Source of the DNA: a virus | Taxonomy: Duplodnaviria > Caudoviricetes | IMG/VR virus record: IMGVR_UViG_3300020598_000119 | DNA length: 64,000 nt | Strand: one strand, 5' to 3' | Notes under the pieces: generated by a model | What the model was told of the DNA's origin: nothing | Databases searched by the model: none | What the model saw: only the letters and a program-made list of their open reading frames with translations | Translations under genes and position numbers: made by a program | Shown: piece by piece, positions 3,219-51,950 of the stretch | Layout: each line of letters starts with the position of its first letter | Position numbering within the stretch: position 1 is the stretch's first letter

Positions 3219-4703
3219 ATGAAGCAGCCGAATAATATAAGATTCGCGGTCAATCAAATTTCGATAATAGCCAATAAATGTCAGGCGTCCATAAGCACGC
3301 GAATCCAAAATCTCAGCGAGAAAATCAAGAATACCAACGAAATCAATCTCCAGCTGAAAAATACGATCACAGAAAGCGCAAAAGGCCCTTCTTGGGCGCG
3401 CATACCCTTGGCCAAAAATATGTGGGAAATAGGTTCCGGGAAAATATGGAACCGCCGCCTGCCGCTTCTTAAAAAGCAATACCTACAAAATGCAAAAGAA
3501 ATGAAGCACCTGAAAAATGTGTTGTCGACCGAAAAGAAGGTGCTCCAGCGCATCCAAGAGATGCTCAAGCGGTTGCAAGATTTGGCAGCGAACAAGGCGT
3601 CCTATGATGAGATGCCACAGGAACTCAGCCAGCAGATGCACGCAATCGTTTCAGACTTGAAGCGCTTTCCGATTGTCACGGAGCACGGTATCGGCCACGC
3701 GATCACGGCTATACAAGGGCTTGCGGATGAAGCAAGGCGACAGCGCCCCATCGTCATGCCTCCCGTGATCAGGAAAGATAAGGCGACTGATCAGCATCTC
3801 CTGCCTTATAAGGCGTCGTATCACGAACCCATCTACCTTCCGATACCGAAGAACCTCGGATTTCATGCCAAGGCGATTGGTGCCCAGTACGATCCTAATA
3901 TCGCCAAAGCAGGGCGCTATTTCGTCCCCGCAAACACCGATCTGAAGCCGTTTGATCGATATCTGCCCCTCGCCTTCAGGCAGGAGCCACCCAAACTTCG
4001 CTTCTACCCACAGGAGCCGGACACCGTAAAAAAGGTGAACCTCAGGACGATCTTTGATGATGTCACGTGGGACTATATTCGCACCACCAACTACGCAAAG
4101 ACCGACAATCGTTGCGTCATCTGCGGCAAACGAAGTGGAGAGTTCCTGGATCGAATGGCTCCAGAGAAGACCCATAATCGAGCTGATAAGGTCGAATGCC
4201 ATGAGGTCTGGGAGTGGTACCGTCCCAAAAAAGATATCTCGATTGGAGTGCAACAATTAAAAGGCCTCTATATCGTATGTTTTAAGTGCCACATGTCGTT
4301 TCACGACGGAATTGCGCGCAGCATGTTGCGAGCCGAAGAAGACGAGCTGCAATTTGCACGAGATCTACACGCACATCGTTCTCACATCACCAGAGTGGAT
4401 CAAGCTACGCTCTACAACGAAATGGTCGATCTGAATAAAAGAACAAAGACGATGAACAAGATCGATTACTGGATCGTGGATTTAAGCCATCTTACCAACC
4501 AGGACTATATGCGACACATCGCACCAATTTTTCTGGAACATAATCGTGCAGGGATTGGCGTAGAGCAGATAGCTGGCTTTGAATTCGCGACTGACACGGG
4601 CGAAAAATTGCCAGCGCGGGGCGTTAAAGAAATATTCTACGAAATGGCACCGCGATACCCCGCGATTTCTGTCGAAAGTTTACTAGCAAAACATCGAATG
4701 TAA
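3219..4703 (+). CDS. DUF5710-like domain plus HNH-type endonuclease
   Basis: YLPIP..AKAIGAQYDP..YFVP segment followed by WDYIR..RCVICG..ECHEVW..LYIVCFKCHMSFH (two CxxC pairs plus His). Confidence 0.7.
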   Translation: MKQPNNIRFAVNQISIIANKCQASISTRIQNLSEKIKNTNEINLQLKNTITESAKGPSWARIPLAKNMWEIGSGKIWNRRLPLLKKQYLQNAKEMKHLKNVLSTEKKVLQRIQEMLKRLQDLAANKASYDEMPQELSQQMHAIVSDLKRFPIVTEHGIGHAITAIQGLADEARRQRPIVMPPVIRKDKATDQHLLPYKASYHEPIYLPIPKNLGFHAKAIGAQYDPNIAKAGRYFVPANTDLKPFDRYLPLAFRQEPPKLRFYPQEPDTVKKVNLRTIFDDVTWDYIRTTNYAKTDNRCVICGKRSGEFLDRMAPEKTHNRADKVECHEVWEWYRPKKDISIGVQQLKGLYIVCFKCHMSFHDGIARSMLRAEEDELQFARDLHAHRSHITRVDQATLYNEMVDLNKRTKTMNKIDYWIVDLSHLTNQDYMRHIAPIFLEHNRAGIGVEQIAGFEFATDTGEKLPARGVKEIFYEMAPRYPAISVESLLAKHRM

Positions 4704-5705: not shown

Positions 5706-8003
5706 ATGAGTACAGAAAACGCTTCCCCATTTTATGCAGAAACATTTCTGCTTCGCGCTGCCACTGGGCAGAATACGGCCGCTATCGCCAAGAAATTAGG
5801 CGTTAAATCCGCCCAATTGAAGAAGTGGGAGAACGGCGCTGAGCCGACCCCAGTCGAAATTACGACAAAACTTAAGGCTCTTCAGCCCGAGCCTCGACAT
5901 CAAAGTCAGAATAAATTTCGTTTTATCGATCTGTTCGCTGGCATTGGCGGCCTTCGAAAGGCTTTCGAAAATGCAGGTGGAGAATGCGTTTTTACGAGCG
6001 AATGGAACCAAAACGCGCTTGAAACCTACATGGCGAATTACGGCGTTGGGCATCCCGTCGCTGGTGACATCACTAAGGTCGAAGCTTCGGAAATTCCTGA
6101 CCACGACATTCTCGTTGGAGGGTTTCCCTGCTTCCCTGCTGGCACTCTAATCGAGACCGAGACTCGCTTCCGTCCTATCGAAGACATCAGAGCTGGCGAC
6201 ATGGTCGCCACTCATCAGCATCGGCTGCGCAAGGTTCTAACTGCCATGCGCCGCGATGATGCAGAACTTTATGACGTCAAAATAACAGGCATCCCATCGT
6301 TCAAAACGACTGATGAACATCCTTTCTACGTGCGCAAGAAGCAGCGTTCATGGAACAATGCTCGTCGTGGTTATGATTACACATTTGGCGAGCCTGAATG
6401 GATCGCCGCACAAGATCTAACTGGTGATCACTACGCCGCACTGCCTGTAGACACGGAATTTCTTAGCCAAGGCGATGAGCCTTTCAGCGGCAACGCTTTC
6501 TGGTACCTTGTAGGTCGATGGCTAGGCGATGGATGGATCGCCGATTATCCAAGAACAGAAGAAGGGCGAGAAAATTCTCGTATTCGTAAAGTGCTAATTT
6601 GCACTGGCACAGAGGACGCCGACAATCTAGAAACTGCTATTAAGGCGGCGGGGTTCTCTTGCACGAGAGTTACAGAGCGAACCGTCGTTAAATTCCACAT
6701 TTGTTCGAAGGATTTTGTCGAATTTCTGGCTCAGTTTGGTCGCTGTGCTGACGGCAAGCAACTTCCACGACGAATTTTCTCGCTGCCCCTATCCGCACAG
6801 AAGGAGATTTGGAATGGCTGGATGGACGCTGATGGCTACAAGCACAAGGACTCTGAAAAATATTCGGCGACATCCATCAACAGAGCGCTTTCACTTCAAA
6901 TGGCGAGATTGGCTCGCAATGTTTACGGTCGAGTCGCGACGGTTAAGCGATCCAACGTCCCTCCCACGAAGGTGATCGAAGGACGCAATGTAAATCAGCG
7001 CGCTCAGTACCACACGACGCTTGCCCCAACCAATCACGGCCTCACATTTATCGAGGGGAATTATGCTTGGGTAAAGGTGAAGTCCGTCAAAAAGACAGGT
7101 GAAACTGCTACCGTCTACAATATCGAGGTCGAAGAAGATAATTCCTACGTTGCAGAGGGCGTTATTGTCCATAATTGCCAGCCGTTTTCACTGGCCGGAG
7201 TTTCGAAGAAAAACTCAACTGGCACACCCCATGGCTTCGAGGACAAAACACAAGGCACCCTGTTCTTCGACGTCGCGCGCATCATCAAGGAAAAGCGTCC
7301 GAAGGCATTCTTGCTTGAGAACGTTCGAAACCTCGCTGCTCACGACAAGGGTCGCACTTTCGAGGTGATAAAGAACGTCCTTCAGGAAGAACTCGGCTAT
7401 ACAATCGCATGGAAGATCATGGAAGGCACGCCATGGGTTCCGCAGCGTCGTCCTCGCATCGCGATTGTCGGCTTCCGCGACGGTTTCCAGTTCGATTTCG
7501 ACACCGTCAACACCAGAACCAATCGCCAGCCCGTGCTTGGAGACATTCTACATGCGCCAGGCGAAGCTCCTGAAGGCGATGATCGATTTGCAACCGATGG
7601 CGTGGTCCATGACAAATACACGCTGACTGACGGTCTATGGGCATACCTGCAGGCTCATGCCGCTCTCCACAAGGAGAAGGGCAACGGCTTCGGCTACGGC
7701 ATGCATGGCCCTAATGACATCGCCCGCACACTGACAGCTCGATACTACAAGGATGGCGCTGAGATCCTGATCCATCAGGAGGGCAAGAACCCGAGACGCC
7801 TCACACCGCGTGAGTGCGCACGTCTCATGGGCTTTGAGTACCCAGGTGAGGCCGAGATGATCATCCCGGTTTCGGATACGCAGGCGTACAAGCAATTCGG
7901 CAACTCGGTCATCATTCCAATGTTTGCCGAGATCGCAAAGGCCATGGTTCCAACCGTGCTCGAACAGATCGCCGAGGAGCAGGAAAACGAAAAGGCCGCT
8001 TAG
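5706..8003 (+). CDS. dcm: C5-cytosine DNA methyltransferase (Dcm-like) with N-terminal HTH, interrupted by an intein
   Basis: FIDLFAGIGG (motif I), GFP|CQPFS (IV, split by intein), LLENV (VI), QRRPR (VIII), RRLTPRECARLMGF and YKQFGNSV (IX/X). Confidence 0.92.
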   Translation: MSTENASPFYAETFLLRAATGQNTAAIAKKLGVKSAQLKKWENGAEPTPVEITTKLKALQPEPRHQSQNKFRFIDLFAGIGGLRKAFENAGGECVFTSEWNQNALETYMANYGVGHPVAGDITKVEASEIPDHDILVGGFPCFPAGTLIETETRFRPIEDIRAGDMVATHQHRLRKVLTAMRRDDAELYDVKITGIPSFKTTDEHPFYVRKKQRSWNNARRGYDYTFGEPEWIAAQDLTGDHYAALPVDTEFLSQGDEPFSGNAFWYLVGRWLGDGWIADYPRTEEGRENSRIRKVLICTGTEDADNLETAIKAAGFSCTRVTERTVVKFHICSKDFVEFLAQFGRCADGKQLPRRIFSLPLSAQKEIWNGWMDADGYKHKDSEKYSATSINRALSLQMARLARNVYGRVATVKRSNVPPTKVIEGRNVNQRAQYHTTLAPTNHGLTFIEGNYAWVKVKSVKKTGETATVYNIEVEEDNSYVAEGVIVHNCQPFSLAGVSKKNSTGTPHGFEDKTQGTLFFDVARIIKEKRPKAFLLENVRNLAAHDKGRTFEVIKNVLQEELGYTIAWKIMEGTPWVPQRRPRIAIVGFRDGFQFDFDTVNTRTNRQPVLGDILHAPGEAPEGDDRFATDGVVHDKYTLTDGLWAYLQAHAALHKEKGNGFGYGMHGPNDIARTLTARYYKDGAEILIHQEGKNPRRLTPRECARLMGFEYPGEAEMIIPVSDTQAYKQFGNSVIIPMFAEIAKAMVPTVLEQIAEEQENEKAA
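6129..7175 (+). mobile_element. Intein (349 aa) with LAGLIDADG homing endonuclease
   Basis: Starts CFPAGTLI, block B TTDEHPF, LAGLIDADG-like blocks YLVGRWLGDG and WNGWMDADG, ends VYNIEV..VIVHN followed by Cys+1; removal restores GGFPCQPFS. Confidence 0.95.
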
Positions 8004-9574: not shown

Positions 9575-11053
9575 TTAGCTCCCGAGGCTGATGGTTTCGA
9601 ATGCCAGCATCTCTTCTTCCTTGAGCCTGGCCTCATTGGTGACGCGAACGAATTCAGCGAAATGGCCTTCCATTTCCACACGCAGGCTTTCATCAATCGG
9701 AGAAATGATCTCGATGAAGTCATTCTCATCAAGAGTAGCGACCGCATGATTACCTGTTGCGTAGGCGTGAATAGATGCAATTATCCGCTTGCCACTTTCG
9801 ACTGCTCTGGTCGCTGCATCGAGATTCATTCCTGAGAGCTTACAGCAATCAACTACATGCCCTTTTGAACCGAGTTCCATCACACTCCTCTGTCCGATGC
9901 TAATTGAAGAGATAGGTCCTGACAGGATCGGCCACGTTTCATGTTCGTCTCTTTTATCCCAGCGATTGAGAATTTTTTCAGCGGCAGATTTTATGCCATC
10001 TAGGTCATCACGAAGAACTCCTTGTCGAGCGGAGTGAAGATTGTCCTCACTCTTCACTCGGTGATTGAACATGCGATCATCACCTTCACGTATTGCCCCA
10101 ATGCGAATGTCCTCGACTAAGTCATCGCTTAGCTCGATCTCACAAAATTCCTTTACTGCCGCAATCAACCTGTCAGTCACTCGGTTTCCTGCGTCTTCAT
10201 ATGCATCACGGAATTCAAACCATTTCTGAAGGTACGGCAAAGACAAGCTTGCGGCGTCTTTGTCCAGACAATTTCTGAGAGAAGCCGCCAAAAGCATCGT
10301 GTCTCGGTTGTCGCCATCGTATGTAAAAACTGTGGGATCAAAGACCTCTATGTGAGGCATTTCTCTACGATTTTCCCCTTGAGAATGCTTGTGTGCGAGA
10401 TTGATATTACACGTAGTATCGCTTCTGTCGGAAAGTAGGCCGTAGATTGAGTGCTCTTCATAATCAAATCGAGAGAAAGAATTTTGGCCACGACATGTGA
10501 CCGAAGGCTTGTCGGTGTATTTACAAATCGTGAACACAGGTTCGGGGATTTCTTCATAAACAACACCATCGACGATCAAAAGCTGTTCGGCCAGTTTCGT
10601 GAGGCTTTTTGCCATTCGAGCACCCTTGTCGTCACTGATGGTTCGATGAGGTGCTCCAAATGGCTGGGCCGCCAGAATTTGCTCGCCCGTCGTGTACTTG
10701 ATCTCACGTTCAAAAGCCCTCGACACCTTAGGATGGGCTTTATCAAAGAGAGTCCCTTCGAAACCTTTCTCAAGACCCTTATTGAATTCTTCGACCGAGT
10801 ATTTTTCTACAAAATATCGCCCATCTACGAATCGAATTTCACGAGGCTCTTCGCCTTTTTTAAATGAGAAATTTTTGGCTCCATCCTGAATAGAGTTTGT
10901 CTTCTGGCCGATCTTGGCGACCAATGGTGCTTCGCTCGGAGACAGCTCTCGAATTTCGACTTCGACATTCGAACGACCATAAGCCACATCAGGGTTCTGA
11001 TGCCTGTAACGGACAAATGAGATCGTATAGTCGAAATTGATATCCAAACGCAT
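9575..11053 (-). CDS. Hypothetical protein, plasmid paralog family (VxIRE..EAP / IxDGxVY..EP motifs)
   Basis: 492 aa ORF with SD; motifs shared with 8074-9570 and 42889-43908. Confidence 0.8.
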   Translation of the reverse strand: MRLDINFDYTISFVRYRHQNPDVAYGRSNVEVEIRELSPSEAPLVAKIGQKTNSIQDGAKNFSFKKGEEPREIRFVDGRYFVEKYSVEEFNKGLEKGFEGTLFDKAHPKVSRAFEREIKYTTGEQILAAQPFGAPHRTISDDKGARMAKSLTKLAEQLLIVDGVVYEEIPEPVFTICKYTDKPSVTCRGQNSFSRFDYEEHSIYGLLSDRSDTTCNINLAHKHSQGENRREMPHIEVFDPTVFTYDGDNRDTMLLAASLRNCLDKDAASLSLPYLQKWFEFRDAYEDAGNRVTDRLIAAVKEFCEIELSDDLVEDIRIGAIREGDDRMFNHRVKSEDNLHSARQGVLRDDLDGIKSAAEKILNRWDKRDEHETWPILSGPISSISIGQRSVMELGSKGHVVDCCKLSGMNLDAATRAVESGKRIIASIHAYATGNHAVATLDENDFIEIISPIDESLRVEMEGHFAEFVRVTNEARLKEEEMLAFETISLGS

Positions 11054-46215: not shown

Positions 46216-47364
46216 ATGGGAAATCAAATTGCGGGTGAATTGACGCTCAAGAACAACGTCAAAATTCTTTCTGATGCAAAGGCGAAGAAAGAGAAGCGCG
46301 AAGTGACTGAATACCTTCAGACATCGCTGTTCTCCTTGCTAGAACAGAACCAGACCAATTGCACTGCCCTATACGACCTTGCCCCGCGTTTCATTAGCCG
46401 CGTTGAGCGGCCGGACGACACGGCGTATTTGGTCGCCATCAAAAAGGATTTCACCTTCAACGGCGAGCCATATCGCGTGACTGTAAGCCCTGCACGCGTG
46501 ATCCAGCAGGATGGCAGTGAACGCGACGAGCTGCCCGGCGAGCGCGAACAGCTTGTTGAAGACGTCATTCGCAGGATGGCGGCTGATTGTATGAAGGTCC
46601 ATCAGGACCAAATTGAGATACCGTTCTCGATCTATGCCATTCATCGGGAACTCATGCGCCATGGCCACACCTTCAGCAAGCAGGAGGTCAAGGAGGCGCT
46701 CATCATCCTGAACAAGAGCAATATCGAGATCACGAAGATCGTCGAGGAAGGTAGCCGCAAGCCGAAGCCCGTTCTGTCGGCCGCTGCCTACCCTGTCTTG
46801 AAGTTTTCGGATGCGAGCGATCCCGAAAGCACGGCGTCTGTTCAGCTCAACCCGCTACTCGTTCAGGCGATCAAGTCGCTCGCTTTCGAGCAGATCAACT
46901 ACGACTGGATGATGCAGGTGAAGGGGTCCCTGCCTCGGTGGATTTTCAAGTACATTTCTTTGATGCTGGCTGACACAACGGATGACAGCCATACGATCCA
47001 ACTCTCAGCGGCCGAGATCGCTCGTTCTTTCGGCCACATCAGGGTGCGCTGGCGGGCCTCTTTGATGGAAGTCGAAAAAGCATTCGATTCCCTCCAGAAG
47101 TTCGGCATCATTGACAGCATCGAGAAGCAGGAAGTCTATTCAGGGAAAAAGAAGGAAGACATTACCTTCACCGCGAAACTCTCGTCAAAGTTCATGGCCG
47201 ACCGCATCAACGCCAAGGGGCGGCGGTCGTTTATCGAAAGTGAAGTGAAGCGGCGCGTGGAACCGAACCAAGTAGCCAAGTTTTACCCTCTCACAGCAAA
47301 CGAAGCTGGTGACCTTGCCAAGTCCTACAAGGACAACGTGGTCGTATTAGGCAAAGCTAGGTAG
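46216..47364 (+). CDS. Plasmid replication initiator protein (iteron-binding Rep)
   Basis: LYDLAPRF, VTVSPARV, LPGEREQLVEDVIRRMA, FSIYAIHREL..GHTFS..EVKEAL, a pattern I associate with megaplasmid Rep proteins; adjacent iterons. Confidence 0.82.
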   Translation: MGNQIAGELTLKNNVKILSDAKAKKEKREVTEYLQTSLFSLLEQNQTNCTALYDLAPRFISRVERPDDTAYLVAIKKDFTFNGEPYRVTVSPARVIQQDGSERDELPGEREQLVEDVIRRMAADCMKVHQDQIEIPFSIYAIHRELMRHGHTFSKQEVKEALIILNKSNIEITKIVEEGSRKPKPVLSAAAYPVLKFSDASDPESTASVQLNPLLVQAIKSLAFEQINYDWMMQVKGSLPRWIFKYISLMLADTTDDSHTIQLSAAEIARSFGHIRVRWRASLMEVEKAFDSLQKFGIIDSIEKQEVYSGKKKEDITFTAKLSSKFMADRINAKGRRSFIESEVKRRVEPNQVAKFYPLTANEAGDLAKSYKDNVVVLGKAR

Positions 47365-48276
47365 ACGCTCGTCCTTCAGACCGTCCCAACCTTCTGACGG
47401 CATCCATCGTGCATCCGTAGCGGTGTCTTCGGACATTGCGGGGATTAAAAATTCGCGCATTTCTGCGATGACAGCGACGAGGTCTATGTCGTCCTTGAGG
47501 TTCGTCTTACGCAGGAATGCACGCCATGCGCGCTCGTTCTCACGACCGAACTCATCTGACAAACCCGGCATGTTTGGATCGATGACACGGCCTTGGTGCT
47601 CGAATGTATTTGCGATAGCCCGCGACAAGACACTTCCTTCTATCTCGTATGAGTTCTGAATACGCCAGATGTCATAGTAATCCTTGTGTCGGGTGTTATC
47701 GCTGCCGAACTGGGCTATCGCATGAAGCTTCTCAGAGACAATGGTCTCAAGTGGGTACCCAGCAATAACAGGGCAGGGGACGACGTCCGGCAATAACGTT
47801 GGGATCTCCATTGGCACGGCGTCAGGCGTTATGACGTTCTGAAAGCCAACGTCCACGCGGATTTGAATACGGGCAGTATGTACCTTGCCTGTCAAAACCA
47901 CCTTGCCACCAGGAATGATGCCCTCACGATCCTTGAGCGTCTTCATGGTATCGAGATCGAAGGTAACACCGTCATCTGGAACAGGCGTCGAAATGGCCAT
48001 ACGGATCGTCTTCTCGATCTCTTCGATGCCGCCTTCCCCGAAGCCATTAAAGTCTATGTCCTCAGTGGGACGCAGGACATCGCCGTTGTTATAGGCGGCC
48101 AGCATCAGACCTCCCTTGAGACAAAAATTCGAGGCGGCGTCACAGACGGAAATCCGATAGAGAAGTCGCTGCTGGGCGTACAGACGAACAAGCGACTGCA
48201 TATCAAGACCAGACGCCTTAGCCTGGGCCTTCAGCTTGTCATAAACGCTCGCTCCGATATTCTTAGTCTCAGCCAT
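47347..48276 (-). CDS. abiEii: AbiEii-family nucleotidyltransferase toxin (type IV TA)
   Basis: FCLKGG, RPTEDIDF, VDVGF, YPLETIVSEKLHA, NTRHKDYYD; SD AGGAG before ATG 48276. Confidence 0.92.
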   Translation of the reverse strand: MAETKNIGASVYDKLKAQAKASGLDMQSLVRLYAQQRLLYRISVCDAASNFCLKGGLMLAAYNNGDVLRPTEDIDFNGFGEGGIEEIEKTIRMAISTPVPDDGVTFDLDTMKTLKDREGIIPGGKVVLTGKVHTARIQIRVDVGFQNVITPDAVPMEIPTLLPDVVPCPVIAGYPLETIVSEKLHAIAQFGSDNTRHKDYYDIWRIQNSYEIEGSVLSRAIANTFEHQGRVIDPNMPGLSDEFGRENERAWRAFLRKTNLKDDIDLVAVIAEMREFLIPAMSEDTATDARWMPSEGWDGLKDERLPSFA

Positions 48277-48342
48277 ATCTTCTCTCCTGAATTCAAGGTG
48301 AGAGACGGCCATGAAATGAACAAGCCGGAAGTGTCTGGAGAT

Positions 48343-49023
48343 TTAGAAGGAAGGAACCTCTGAGCGCACATAACGAACTGTCTTCGTATATGGGCGGATC
48401 GCCTCGTAACATTTAAAAGTTCGAGCAATCGCAGCAACCGTATCAAATGAAAAGTGCTTCATGTTCTCTGAATTCGTTCGGTTCAACGACTCCAAGAACA
48501 TCTCATCCGTGATTCGGACCTGATCCATGCGCATGCTTGGATTAAACGTGCTGTATCTGAAAAGATCGACAAGGGTTCTCTCTGGAGATGTGACTTTGAC
48601 ATTGACGCCGTCGATCACGTGGTCGTCGACACCAATCTCAAACATATCTGGGTTTCGCCACATCAACGTGTCGATCTCAAGCATCCACTGGTTAGCACCC
48701 ATTGAAGGGCTACCCCCCATTTCTCTAGGCACTGCGACCGACAGCTTCCCTGGAAGCTCTTGCGTCATGTTGTGAAATGAAGCGGCCGACAGAAGACAGA
48801 TCACCGACCTCGGGTACTTCTTAGCAACGAGCGCCCAGTCTGAATGAACATTCGTTTCGAACGATGTCAGACGATAGACACCCCAAGCTGGGTTCTCGAC
48901 CTCATTCGCCCTGATCAGAGAACGCATGATGGTCTTCGTGACACCATGCTTTTTGAGATCGGCCATCGTCAGAGGGCCATCAGCAGCCTTCAACAATTCT
49001 AGGGCGGTTTCGCGAGTGGTCAT
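48343..49023 (-). CDS. abiEi: AbiEi-family antitoxin / transcriptional regulator
   Basis: N-terminal wHTH, WGVYRL, VICLLSAASFH.MTQELP, SPERTLVDLFRY; upstream of abiEii. Confidence 0.9.
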   Translation of the reverse strand: MTTRETALELLKAADGPLTMADLKKHGVTKTIMRSLIRANEVENPAWGVYRLTSFETNVHSDWALVAKKYPRSVICLLSAASFHNMTQELPGKLSVAVPREMGGSPSMGANQWMLEIDTLMWRNPDMFEIGVDDHVIDGVNVKVTSPERTLVDLFRYSTFNPSMRMDQVRITDEMFLESLNRTNSENMKHFSFDTVAAIARTFKCYEAIRPYTKTVRYVRSEVPSF

Positions 49024-49562: not shown

Positions 49563-49709
49563 ATGAAAATTATGAGAGCATACAACAACTGGCGTCGATA
49601 TCGTGACACAGTGAACGAGCTGAACTCGCTTTCCAACCGCGAGTTGACCGATCTCGGCATTTCACGCGCTGACATCCCTTACATTGCCAAGCAGGCGGCC
49701 GTTCGCTGA
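49563..49709 (+). CDS. DUF1127 (YjiS-like) small Arg-rich protein, 48 aa (absent from ORF track)
   Basis: MKIMRAYNNWRRYRDTVNELNSLSNRELTDLGISRADIPYIAKQAAVR; SD AAGGA. Confidence 0.92.
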   Translation: MKIMRAYNNWRRYRDTVNELNSLSNRELTDLGISRADIPYIAKQAAVR

Positions 49710-49754: not shown

Positions 49755-50080
49755 GAATTTGAAGAGAATGCCTTTAGCGACCGCCAGCAGCGTTATCGAT
49801 CTGCGAACGAGAGATACCGATATCGGCAAGAAGATGGTCGTCCAATTGACTGAGCTGATAAACAGCACGGCGATGATTAAGATACTGAGTTACTTTTTTA
49901 CGAATGTTCATTTCTTTTCCTCACATGAATAATCCTCTGAATTATAAATGGGCTTTGGCTTGAATATTTGCTATGGAATAAAACGCACACTAGCTATGCA
50001 TGGGAGGAATGGCTCGCATAATTATTATGCATGGGAAAAACTACAGTAGTGGCGAACTCAACAATCAATACGGAATGTAA

Positions 50081-50156
50081 TGGCGCGACCGGGGAGAGTC
50101 GAACTCCCGACCTCCTCGTTCGGAGCGAGGCGCTCTATCCACTGAGCTACGGCCGC
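50081..50156 (-). tRNA. tRNA-Arg(CCG)
   Basis: Cloverleaf; anticodon arm CCTCG-CTCCGAA-CGAGG; TTCGA; encoded CCA. Confidence 0.95.
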
Positions 50157-50164
50157 ATTTAAGG

Positions 50165-50240
50165 TGGAGCGCACGGCAGGATTCGAACCTGCATAAATCG
50201 GCTTCGTAGACCGATGCCACATCCCTTGGACCACGTGCGC
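50165..50240 (-). tRNA. tRNA-Arg(ACG), atypical D-arm and U73
   Basis: GCGCACG acceptor; TCGGT-CTACGAA-GCCGA; GCAGG-TTCGAAT-CCTGC; ends TCCA. Confidence 0.88.
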
Positions 50241-50281
50241 GAATTATTTATGACGTTTGTCCAGATCGTCATAAAAAGAAG

Positions 50282-50359
50282 TGGCACGTTTGACAGGATT
50301 CGAACCTGTGACCTTCGGTTTCGTAGACCGACGCTCTGATCCAGCTGAGCTACAAACGC
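50282..50359 (-). tRNA. tRNA-Arg(ACG)
   Basis: TAGCTCAGCTGGA D-arm; TCGGT-CTACGAA-ACCGA; ends GCCA. Confidence 0.95.
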
Positions 50360-50414
50360 AATCTCAATTAAAAGGCGGCTGCACCAGCGCCAAATAATCG
50401 AAACCATGAAACTG

Positions 50415-50490
50415 TGGTGCCATCAGCGAGGATCGAACTCGCGACTTTCGGCTCTTCAGACCGACGCTCTACCAACTGAGCTACAATGGC
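50415..50490 (-). tRNA. tRNA-Phe(GAA)
   Basis: TCGGT-CTGAAGA-GCCGA; TTCGA; ends ACCA. Confidence 0.93.
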
Positions 50491-50522
50491 TTAGAAAGGG
50501 CTTTCGCTCTTTCGATGATTTG

Positions 50523-50551
50523 ACTATGCCAGACACAAAAACCTGAGTCAA
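50523..50551 (-). promoter_or_regulatory. Sigma70 promoter of the tRNA cluster
   Basis: TTGACT-N17-CATAGT with an AT-rich UP-like tract upstream, about 33 nt before tRNA-Phe. Confidence 0.75.
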
Positions 50552-50717
50552 CAACAAAAATAAAAAAAGATAATATTTTCAAACGCTTACATGGAAAATC
50601 AGCATGCAAAAAGGCTTCTCGGGAAGTTCGTTCCCAAGCTAAAAATCAAACATTTCGCTCCTAAATCGAGCCTTTTTTCGCCGTCGTCGTCGCATCGCTT
50701 TCTCCAGTTTCAAGACA

Positions 50718-50765
50718 ATAAAAAAGGCTGGGGCTTCGTACCTTCCGGTAGAAGCCCCAGCCTTT
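50718..50765 (-). terminator. Strong intrinsic terminator/attenuator
   Basis: AAAGGCTGGGGCTTC-N13-GAAGCCCCAGCCTTTTTT on the - strand, about 25 nt after the stop of a 28-codon ORF. Confidence 0.85.
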
Positions 50766-50789
50766 GCTTTAACAGTGATCAGTCTTAGA

Positions 50790-50876
50790 TCATGTCATGC
50801 GCAAGCGCGTTGGAAGCCATCCGACCGGATGTCCAATAACGCTAAATCGCCGACGAATGATCAAACCAACTGACAT
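50790..50876 (-). CDS. Putative leader peptide MSVGLIIRRRFSVIGHPVGWLPTRLRMT (absent from ORF track)
   Basis: SD AAGGGA, ATG..TGA, tandem CGT-CGG-CGA codons, internal palindrome CATCCG-GT-CGGATG, terminator follows. Confidence 0.65.
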   Translation of the reverse strand: MSVGLIIRRRFSVIGHPVGWLPTRLRMT

Positions 50877-51335
50877 GTTTTTCCCTTTTAGATAGACCAG
50901 CTTTGGCTTGTTTCATAATTCATTTTCGAATTATGTCCCCACCGCCATTGAGGGGATCCAAATTTGTCATTGATTTGCTATGAAGCACCTCAATGGCGCA
51001 TCTGCACCATGCTTTGACACATAGGGCAGATATTCTGTGCATTAAACGGACAATGCATGATCCACATTAGTATGACCTTGATAATCCACTCACTGTAGCC
51101 ACGTCTCTGCGACGAACGAACCATCTGCGGTTCTTGGTCGAGCAGCTATCAAGCATACTGTGCAAATCAGACATATCCGTTTAATACTATTCACAAATCT
51201 AGCCATATTTAAGAAAATGGCAACTTATTTCTTTTTGCCTTTATGAATTTTTAACAGGGCAATTAAGGCCATCCACGCCATGAGGCGAATTATGAAACAA
51301 GCCACTTATATACAGGTCCCGACAACAGTCAAGAA

Positions 51336-51950
51336 TTATGGTTGCAGCCCCCTACTGTCCTCCAGGGTTTCGTTTAAGCGAGTGATCGTGGAATTAAGAT
51401 ATTGGCTAATGCTCTCAGCAGCTTCCTTCAACTCCGGTTCCATTACCTTAGGTCTGTCAAGAGCAAGTGCGCGCTGGGTAACAACCACCGGCGGCGTCTG
51501 CCCGCTACAGATATATGCGGCTGCCAGATGATCCGACAGGTCTGCTCCACCAGAAGTCAATGCGAAACCGGATATCATTGTGATGTCGTCTACCTGACCT
51601 GAAATCAAAACGCAGCTCAATCCGGCCGCGTACATGGCATTCGCGGCCGCCTGAGGGTCGACTGTCGGCGTACATGGCCAGAATACAGTCATCTGCGGAT
51701 GAAACTGCTGCTTCCACTCATCATGACCAGCCGTCCCCTTGAAGGAGGCGACGGCGAAGCGATAGGCCTCCTCCTCATCCTCTGGAACCACCAAGCCATT
51801 GGCGACAAGGTGGTCGGGGGAATAGTTAGCATCATAGAGATCGTCGTCGGACGGTTCTGGATAGACAATGAGTTTGTCCAGATCGCCGATACAAGACCAA
51901 TTGAACCGCGAGGGCGTTGCCAAAATGAAATCAGTAGATAGCTTGCTCAT
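51336..51950 (-). CDS. Hypothetical protein
   Basis: 204 aa; FALTSGGADLSDHLAAAYI motif. Confidence 0.75.
   Translation of the reverse strand: MSKLSTDFILATPSRFNWSCIGDLDKLIVYPEPSDDDLYDANYSPDHLVANGLVVPEDEEEAYRFAVASFKGTAGHDEWKQQFHPQMTVFWPCTPTVDPQAAANAMYAAGLSCVLISGQVDDITMISGFALTSGGADLSDHLAAAYICSGQTPPVVVTQRALALDRPKVMEPELKEAAESISQYLNSTITRLNETLEDSRGLQP

Follow-up and report, generated by a model that had tools for sequence, protein, structure and literature searches.

A codon-matched leader open reading frame and an intrinsic terminator precede a Phe/Arg tRNA cluster on a conjugative element and probably form a ribosome-mediated attenuator

A short open reading frame and a terminator lie in front of four tRNA genes

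The subject of this analysis is a cluster of four tRNA genes and its leader region, located on the minus strand of a 64,000-nucleotide stretch of DNA (hereafter the window) filed as IMG/VR virus record IMGVR_UViG_3300020598_000119. The window has a GC content of ~50% and encodes a type IV coupling protein, a secretin, a Strawberry-notch-type helicase, PcfJ and an AbiEii toxin, which identifies it as a conjugative mobile element. The cluster consists of tRNA-Phe (GAA) at 50490-50415, two tRNA-Arg (ACG) genes at 50359-50282 (copy a) and 50240-50165 (copy b), and tRNA-Arg (CCG) at 50156-50081, all on the minus strand. An original prediction, made from the letters of the DNA alone, had described upstream of these genes a 28-codon open reading frame (ORF) with CGT-CGG-CGA and two further CGC codons, followed by a terminator hairpin, and both the ORF (here ORF1) and the hairpin, as well as all four tRNA genes, were found in their places. 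The nearest genome is that of Mesorhizobium sp. SP-1A (G001), whose contig 2 (C2) carries an orthologous locus with the same four tRNAs and 94-95% identity to the window.

In the direction of transcription, the leader region begins with a putative promoter, P1 (51332-51305, -), which consists of TTGACT (51332-51327), a 16-nt spacer and TATAAG (51310-51305) and lies 4 nt downstream of where a gene for a 204-aa protein has its stop codon. Its agreement with the promoter consensus suggests that P1 is a promoter, which would serve the leader. In SP-1A, P1 is located ~10 nt before the conserved 5' end of the leader and ~35 nt upstream of the Shine-Dalgarno (SD) sequence; in the window, an insertion described below lies in between. 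The 5' untranslated leader (50903-50877, -) contains the SD sequence AAAGGG (50888-50883), positioned 6 nt before the ATG of ORF1 (50876-50790, -; 28 codons, MSVGLIIRRRFSVIGHPVGWLPTRLRMT). Codons 8-11 of ORF1 form the run CGT CGG CGA TTT (50855-50844, -), which we refer to as the control codons, and the two CGC codons follow later in the ORF. The control codons are decoded by Arg-ICG, Arg-CCG, Arg-ICG and Phe-GAA, i.e., by every tRNA species of the cluster. That the Arg codons of the leader are read by the downstream tRNAs, CGT and CGA by Arg-ICG and CGG by Arg-CCG, had been pointed out before; the Phe codon after the Arg run had been overlooked, as had a second small ORF, ORF2.

Within the distal part of ORF1 lies region 2, the 5' strand of a predicted antiterminator (50829-50811, -; TCCGGTCGGATGGCTTCCA), which can pair with 50762-50744. 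The intrinsic terminator formed by regions 3 and 4 (50765-50718, -) begins 27 nt past the ORF1 stop codon. Its 5' arm (50762-50747), loop (50746-50743) and 3' arm (50742-50726) make up a hairpin with a stem of ~16-19 bp and a folding energy (dG) of -31 kcal/mol, followed by TTTTTT. The original prediction had also suggested a resemblance to the Rhizobiales speF leader. This suggestion found no support: Rfam gave no such match at the gathering score in the window, nor at E values up to 10 in the interval 49800-51400; at both the gathering and the permissive threshold, the scan returned tRNAs only and neither a T-box nor any other leader family.

The predicted antiterminator is available when the ribosome stands on the control codons

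The leader RNA (50905-50718) folds with -77 kcal/mol, corresponding to a z-score of -7.3 relative to 200 dinucleotide shuffles. Its 1:2 pairing is a long hairpin in which the Arg codons pair with codons ~22-26, and the terminator comes next. For each ribosome position, we removed the RNA covered by the ribosome and folded only the RNA that precedes the 3' arm of the terminator. When the A site was on codons 7-10 (the control codons, with the start codon counted as 0), 15 of the 16 bases of the terminator 5' arm paired with 50829-50811 (codons 16-22). From codon 16 on, the number of paired 5'-arm bases dropped to 6, and with the ribosome at the ORF1 stop codon none was paired upstream. The antiterminator has a free-energy difference (ddG) of -15.6 kcal/mol, compared with -7.8 +/- 2.3 kcal/mol for 300 dinucleotide shuffles of the upstream segment, two of which were as low; the 15 paired arm bases were matched by none of the 300 shuffles.

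Conservation is concentrated on the same elements. Between the window and SP-1A, the leader, ORF1 and the terminator together differ at 1 of 186 positions, compared with 43 of 281 elsewhere in the locus outside the tRNA genes (Fisher P 2e-9). The 5' untranslated leader (27/27), ORF1 (87/87) and the terminator (49/49) are identical, and the conservation of the Phe/Arg leader equals that of the tRNAs. In metagenome contigs from four studies, the only ORF1 variant listed is a synonymous GTT>GTC change at 50838, and the stretch from ORF2 to P2, a promoter-like module in front of the tRNA genes, is variable.

All seven tRNA clusters of the SP-1A element have codon-matched leaders

The SP-1A element carries ~46 tRNA genes for all 20 amino acids, arranged in seven clusters at 935-1066 kb of contig 2. 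Upstream of every cluster, and on the same strand as its tRNAs, there are a promoter-like site, a short ORF with an SD sequence and an intrinsic terminator. The leader AIAINTINVTANMAGG of the 13-tRNA Asn/Val/Gly/Ala/Met/Ile/Thr cluster contains 16 consecutive cognate codons, and QSSQQQSSQSSSSSS in front of the Ser/Gln cluster contains 15. Runs of nine and eight cognate codons are found in TRTTWTCWR (Trp, Thr-CGT, Thr-TGT, Cys, Arg-TCT cluster) and HLLPLPYL (Tyr/Leu/Pro/His cluster), respectively, and a run of four in the RRRF of the Phe/Arg cluster. The Glu/Asp/Glu cluster (EE..EDD) and the Lys/Lys cluster (K.K) show shorter matches.

The true assignment of leaders to clusters was the single best of all 5040 permutations, both by the summed cognate fraction and by the summed longest run, and an ORF-independent test that used three frames of the 600 nt upstream gave 2/5040 permutations. 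Measured against the background of the island, four clusters reached P ~0.001-0.003, and the Phe/Arg cluster reached 0.02 through a five-codon run in ORF2. The antiterminators follow the same pattern. Summed over the seven attenuators, their value was -67.3 as opposed to -41.9 +/- 6.4 for shuffles, and 0 of 200 shuffles were as low; in this comparison the figures for the Glu/Asp antiterminator are unreliable, because the automatic choice of terminator took the wrong T-run. The decisive support for the codon match comes from the seven-cluster family, and the evidence from the single Phe/Arg cluster is modest.

An Arg-rich leader ORF precedes argS, and the same design recurs in the phage CcrColossus

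A leader of a related kind is found in front of a protein gene of the SP-1A element. Its argS gene (G001:C2:829816-832830; Pfam tRNA-synt_1d, Arg_tRNA_synt_N) has a 15-codon ORF, MLNPLKIFVLRRRRR-stop, in front of it; on the minus strand of this interval, the leader ORF occupies ~1545-1498 and argS 1445-3. The last codons of the ORF are AGG CGA AGA CGA CGT, and a small hairpin comes after it; MLNPLKIFVLRRRRR looks like an Arg-sensing leader in front of the synthetase.

CcrColossus (JX100810.1) is a Caulobacter phage and one of the jumbo phages with a homologue of the 204-aa protein encoded next to the window's leader. In its genome, the leader MMTYRNNVRQIRVRQFN... contains 11 consecutive cognate codons and covers every tRNA species of the cluster behind it, which consists of Val-GAC, Ile-GAT x2, Val-CAC, Gln-CTG, Gln-TTG, Asn-GTT and Arg-ACG x2. 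Its antiterminator is a perfect 11-bp pairing (CTTGGCGGGCC / GGCCCGCCAGG) that is freed by a stall within the run, and the terminator before this Val/Ile/Gln/Asn/Arg cluster is already annotated in the record. An ORF translation suggests another such leader in front of a Pro/Lys/Leu/His/Ala/Ser block. Within the interval 58000-70000 of the phage genome, the two leader sites lie at 10149-10302 and ~3265-3384.

A mobile insertion separates P1 from the leader in the window

The insertion between P1 and the leader (50904-51304) resembles a miniature inverted-repeat transposable element (MITE). It is 401 bp long, has 18-bp terminal inverted repeats (TGGCTTGTTTCATAATTC) and a 3-bp target duplication (AAG), and sits directly after the -10 box of P1. 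The orthologous site in SP-1A is without the MITE, and its homology to the window stops at 50903; a second MITE copy, 88% identical, is present at G001:C2:316227-316632. Contigs from three unrelated metagenome studies link 50900 to 51305, showing that the uninterrupted leader locus occurs in nature. Inside the MITE, no terminator-like sites were found in the leader direction, so transcripts from P1 could still reach ORF1. An 11-bp inverted repeat that had been noted upstream of the leader is indeed present (50998-50988/50953-50943) but belongs to this mobile insertion, and thus is not a leader operator.

A second promoter-like module precedes the tRNA genes

The interval between the terminator and the first tRNA measures ~230 nt and holds ORF2, a second hairpin (hairpin 2) and P2. 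The P2 module (50582-50523, -) comprises an A/T-rich UP-like stretch, the -35 hexamer TTGACT (50551-50546), a 17-nt spacer and an extended -10 element, TGgCATAGT, ending at 50523. The original prediction had listed a promoter of the tRNAs' own at 50523-50551 as a caveat; TTGACT-17-CATAGT was found there, and it restricts the attenuator to an additive role. Paralogues of the P2 module precede the Lys, Glu/Asp and 13-tRNA clusters of SP-1A, making four clusters in all. In the other three, the P2 module is absent, a second promoter is not visible, and the first tRNA stands directly behind the terminator.

The tRNAs of the element share only 79-85% identity with their chromosomal counterparts in SP-1A. 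In copy b of tRNA-Arg (ACG), the D-arm is atypical and the Rfam score is lower (49.9 bits vs ~68 for the adjacent tRNAs); the copy is conserved to 100% in SP-1A, where it has no chromosomal look-alike.

ORF1 and its flanking RNA as a probable attenuator of tRNA genes

We interpret ORF1 and the flanking RNA as a classical ribosome-mediated transcription attenuator that regulates a tRNA cluster instead of an amino-acid operon, and put the probability of this reading at roughly three in four. The element would thereby probably raise its output of Phe/Arg tRNAs only when these become scarce for the ribosomes. A leader-peptide attenuator sensing the supply of tRNA-Arg had already been proposed, and the 1:2/2:3/3:4 geometry, the conservation and the place of the locus as one of seven codon-matched SP-1A units support that proposal. 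On the evidence of these sequences, the Phe/Arg unit appears to be one of seven codon-matched gates on a ~50%-GC conjugative element, which in addition has an argS gene with its own Arg-rich leader.

We infer that transcription begins at P1 and that ORF1 is translated. When charged Arg-tRNA(ICG), Arg-tRNA(CCG) or Phe-tRNA(GAA) is scarce, the ribosome would stall at CGU-CGG-CGA-UUU (codons 8-11) and mask region 1, and region 2 (50829-50811) would stay free. Free region 2 would then pair with the emerging 5' arm of the terminator, and RNA polymerase would continue to the four tRNA genes. Under fast decoding, it is predicted to cross region 2 and reach the stop codon with the ribosome's advance unhindered, the terminator would form, and a leader RNA of ~160 nt would be released. 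P2 (50551-50523) would supply basal tRNA, with the attenuator contributing the demand-driven share.

Several observations weigh against this interpretation. The MITE puts 401 bp between P1 and the leader, which the transcript has to cross. P2 sits between the attenuator and the tRNAs, which could therefore be made without read-through; in the Phe/Arg cluster, this position limits the attenuator to adding to basal expression. In this DNA, 8% of 400-nt windows contain at least four consecutive codons from the Phe/Arg set; the RRRF run of ORF1 is therefore not significant by itself (P 0.08). Longer runs are rarer: at least five such codons are found in 1.5% of 400-nt windows, and a run of at least five plus a second one of at least four in 0.2%. 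In SP-1A, the Lys and Glu/Asp clusters are individually non-significant. At equilibrium, the terminator probability is ~1 at any ribosome position. Because equilibrium folds do not separate the ribosome positions, the argument for a switch is a kinetic one, as it is for the enterobacterial attenuators, and co-transcriptional folds were used. Finally, all copies of the Phe/Arg leader are nearly identical, and too alike for covariation to be assessed.

Alternative explanations

ORF2 (50695-50639, -; 18 codons, MRRRRRKKARFRSEMFDF) lies between the terminator and P2 and could be the main sensor or a second one, acting on read-through transcripts via hairpin 2 or Rho. It has a good SD sequence (GGAG, 50705-50702), and 9 of its 17 codons are cognate to the tRNAs of the cluster, including the five consecutive Arg codons CGA CGA CGA CGG CGA (50692-50678), one more CGA and three TTT. 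The Arg run is invariant in SP-1A and in the metagenome contigs, and equivalent second ORFs are enriched in cognate codons in the Glu/Asp cluster (10/24 codons) and the 13-tRNA cluster (a 7-codon run). Three clusters have a (GAC)n/(CGA)n tract in their second small ORFs, and its reading frame differs between them: the same (GAC)n DNA gives CGA (Arg) in ORF2 but GAC (Asp) in front of the Glu/Asp tRNAs. However, the tract is also present where it is non-cognate, namely in the 13-tRNA cluster, including again after P2, and the ORF2 stop codon is lost in one metagenome contig. The structure of the ORF2 region is unremarkable (z -1.3), and a canonical terminator after ORF2 is absent. Hairpin 2 (50638-50618, -) abuts the ORF2 stop codon and keeps its pairing in SP-1A through a G-C to G-U change, but it is a non-canonical terminator because the T-run stands 5 nt off. 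Moreover, a ribosome terminating at the ORF2 stop codon would melt hairpin 2, which gives regulation of the opposite sign. We therefore regard a sensing role of ORF2 as somewhat doubtful.

The attenuator could also be real and yet sense amino-acid starvation in general, with the tRNA clusters being part of a starvation or stringent-type programme. From the trp, his and phe attenuators it is established that a ribosome stalls alike whether the tRNA is missing or uncharged, and argS of the element likewise has an Arg-rich leader, like pheM before pheST. Extra tRNA, however, gives no relief of an amino-acid shortage. In addition, the leaders match the tRNA species by codon (CGG for CCG; CGU/CGA for ACG), and the 13-tRNA and CcrColossus leaders cover all anticodons, which fits an interrogation of the tRNAs themselves. 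We consider a general starvation response unlikely.

Alternatively, ORF1 and the terminator might form a stand-alone unit, i.e., a small RNA, a small protein gene or an attenuator-derived sRNA (small RNA) like rnTrpL of Sinorhizobium, and the tRNAs would come from P2 only. P2 with its UP-like element downstream of the terminator, an arrangement common to four clusters, would suit this arrangement, as would the very strong terminator (-31 kcal/mol) and the highly structured leader RNA; trans-acting attenuator RNAs are known in Rhizobiales (PMC6614838). Three clusters, however, are without P2, all seven have leader codons that match the tRNAs next to them, and the antiterminator sits exactly where a stall at the control codons would free it, all of which makes a stand-alone unit quite improbable.

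That the hairpin is simply the terminator of the 204-aa gene, which is encoded on the same strand and needs one, and that ORF1 is a spurious frame in which RRRF occurs by chance, as the frequency of four-codon runs would allow, is highly improbable given that the promoter-like P1 separates this gene from ORF1, that ORF1 has an SD sequence, that the leader has a z-score of -7.3, that the conservation of ORF1 and the terminator far exceeds that of the neighbouring spacers, and that the pattern is seen across the seven-cluster family.

Comparison with known systems

The prevailing view places the control of bacterial tRNA genes mainly at initiation, via growth rate and ppGpp. For the accessory tRNAs that plasmids and phages carry, the usual explanation is codon usage; more recently, they have been interpreted as spares against defences that cleave tRNAs. 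The attenuator proposed here has the layout of the enterobacterial leaders trpL, hisL, pheL, thrL, ilvL and leuL, with which it shares an SD-led short ORF with control codons, a 1:2 hairpin, a 2:3 antiterminator opposed to a 3:4 intrinsic terminator, and the position of the ribosome as the switch. In the larger SP-1A clusters, the leaders are multivalent in the manner of thrL and ilvL. Whereas the enterobacterial attenuators regulate biosynthetic enzymes, the regulated genes here are tRNAs, so that the product would be the sensed molecule and the loop one of direct feedback. Further differences are the presence of seven parallel units on a mobile element and the second promoter after the Phe/Arg attenuator.

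Escherichia coli pheM/pheST is similar in that a gene of the translation apparatus stands under a leader rich in cognate codons, and argS of the element with its RRRRR leader is a close analogue; pheST encodes proteins, unlike the tRNA clusters described here. T-box riboswitches also tie translation genes to the state of a specific tRNA through the choice between terminator and antiterminator. A T-box, however, needs neither ribosome nor ORF, since it binds the uncharged tRNA itself, and no Rfam T-box match is present here. To our knowledge, no tRNA gene is known to be under leader-peptide attenuation, and full-text literature searches, which covered few subscription journals, found no published case. 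The mechanism is classical; the regulated target, tRNA genes, and the direct tRNA feedback loop appear to be undescribed.

The trn array of Anabaena sp. PCC 7120 is comparable as an accessory tRNA set on a large plasmid: its 26 tRNAs are encoded on a megaplasmid, are silent or expressed at a low level by default and are induced by translational stress (PMC8421152, PMC10272220). It forms one long operon controlled by the protein repressor TrcR (PMC10272220), in contrast to the amino-acid-sorted clusters with matched leaders seen here, and the words leader, attenuat and terminator are absent from its first description (PMC8421152). CcrColossus is alike in design, with its codon-matched leader, its perfect antiterminator and its annotated terminator, although its leader has no sequence similarity to those of the element and it is a lytic phage and not a conjugative element. 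The paper on the phiCbK/CcrColossus genomes is silent on leaders and attenuation (PMC3556154).

Possible consequences of a codon-specific tRNA feedback

If the attenuator reading is correct, the feedback would be species-specific, since the ribosome would gauge the function of a tRNA and the cell would make more of that tRNA alone. This would also explain why the tRNAs of the element are sorted into amino-acid groups. Tentatively, one may go further and regard the element as a self-contained, demand-driven spare decoding set in which each attenuator interrogates its own tRNA species and the loss of a host tRNA turns on only the matching cluster, a possibility that we consider less likely than not. 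Such a loss could stem from anticodon nucleases or tRNA-modifying toxins, an AbiEii/MenT-type enzyme being encoded 2 kb away; a poor fit of the host tRNAs to the low-GC codon usage of the element would be another cause. With the device present in jumbo phages too, it could represent a general counter-defence or host-independence module of large mobile elements. The sensing and repair of tRNA loss by mobile elements becomes a testable idea, and the leaders would provide ready-made codon-specific sensors for synthetic biology. Since the design is also found in CcrColossus, a cultured and published phage with a model host, it is experimentally accessible.

Distribution of the locus and neighbouring genes

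Among 41 relatives searched at the DNA level, the locus was matched in SP-1A alone, and a search of PLSDB with the locus DNA matched only the tRNA genes of unrelated plasmids. The P2-module pattern was found in SP-1A only, besides chance matches, across 185,579 species genomes; in JGI metagenome contigs it hit 28 stretches, none of them real, and the one inspected (L038) was unrelated. The 204-aa protein gene immediately upstream of the leader (51336-51950, -) belongs to no Pfam family, and among 202 Mesorhizobium genomes it is present in SP-1A only. A protein search with this gene matched two distant plasmids. Homologues of the protein are encoded by jumbo phages of Caulobacter and Brevundimonas and by megaplasmids of Methylorubrum extorquens AM1 and Rhizobium leguminosarum.

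A gene for an AbiEii-family nucleotidyltransferase toxin (47347-48312, -; Pfam PF08843, E 9e-34) is located 2 kb downstream of the tRNA cluster, next to its probable partner gene (48343-49023, -). Relatives of AbiEii (MenT) modify tRNA 3' ends, and by this analogy a link between the toxin and the tRNA system is conceivable. Elsewhere in the window, a C-5 cytosine DNA methylase gene (5706-8003, +) is split by an intein with Hint and intein-splicing domains. Just downstream of the tRNA cluster, two small convergent ORFs (49774-49911, -, and 49563-49709, +) share the motif ...L..L.D.GISR..I..., which resembles the DUF1127 small proteins of Rhizobiales.

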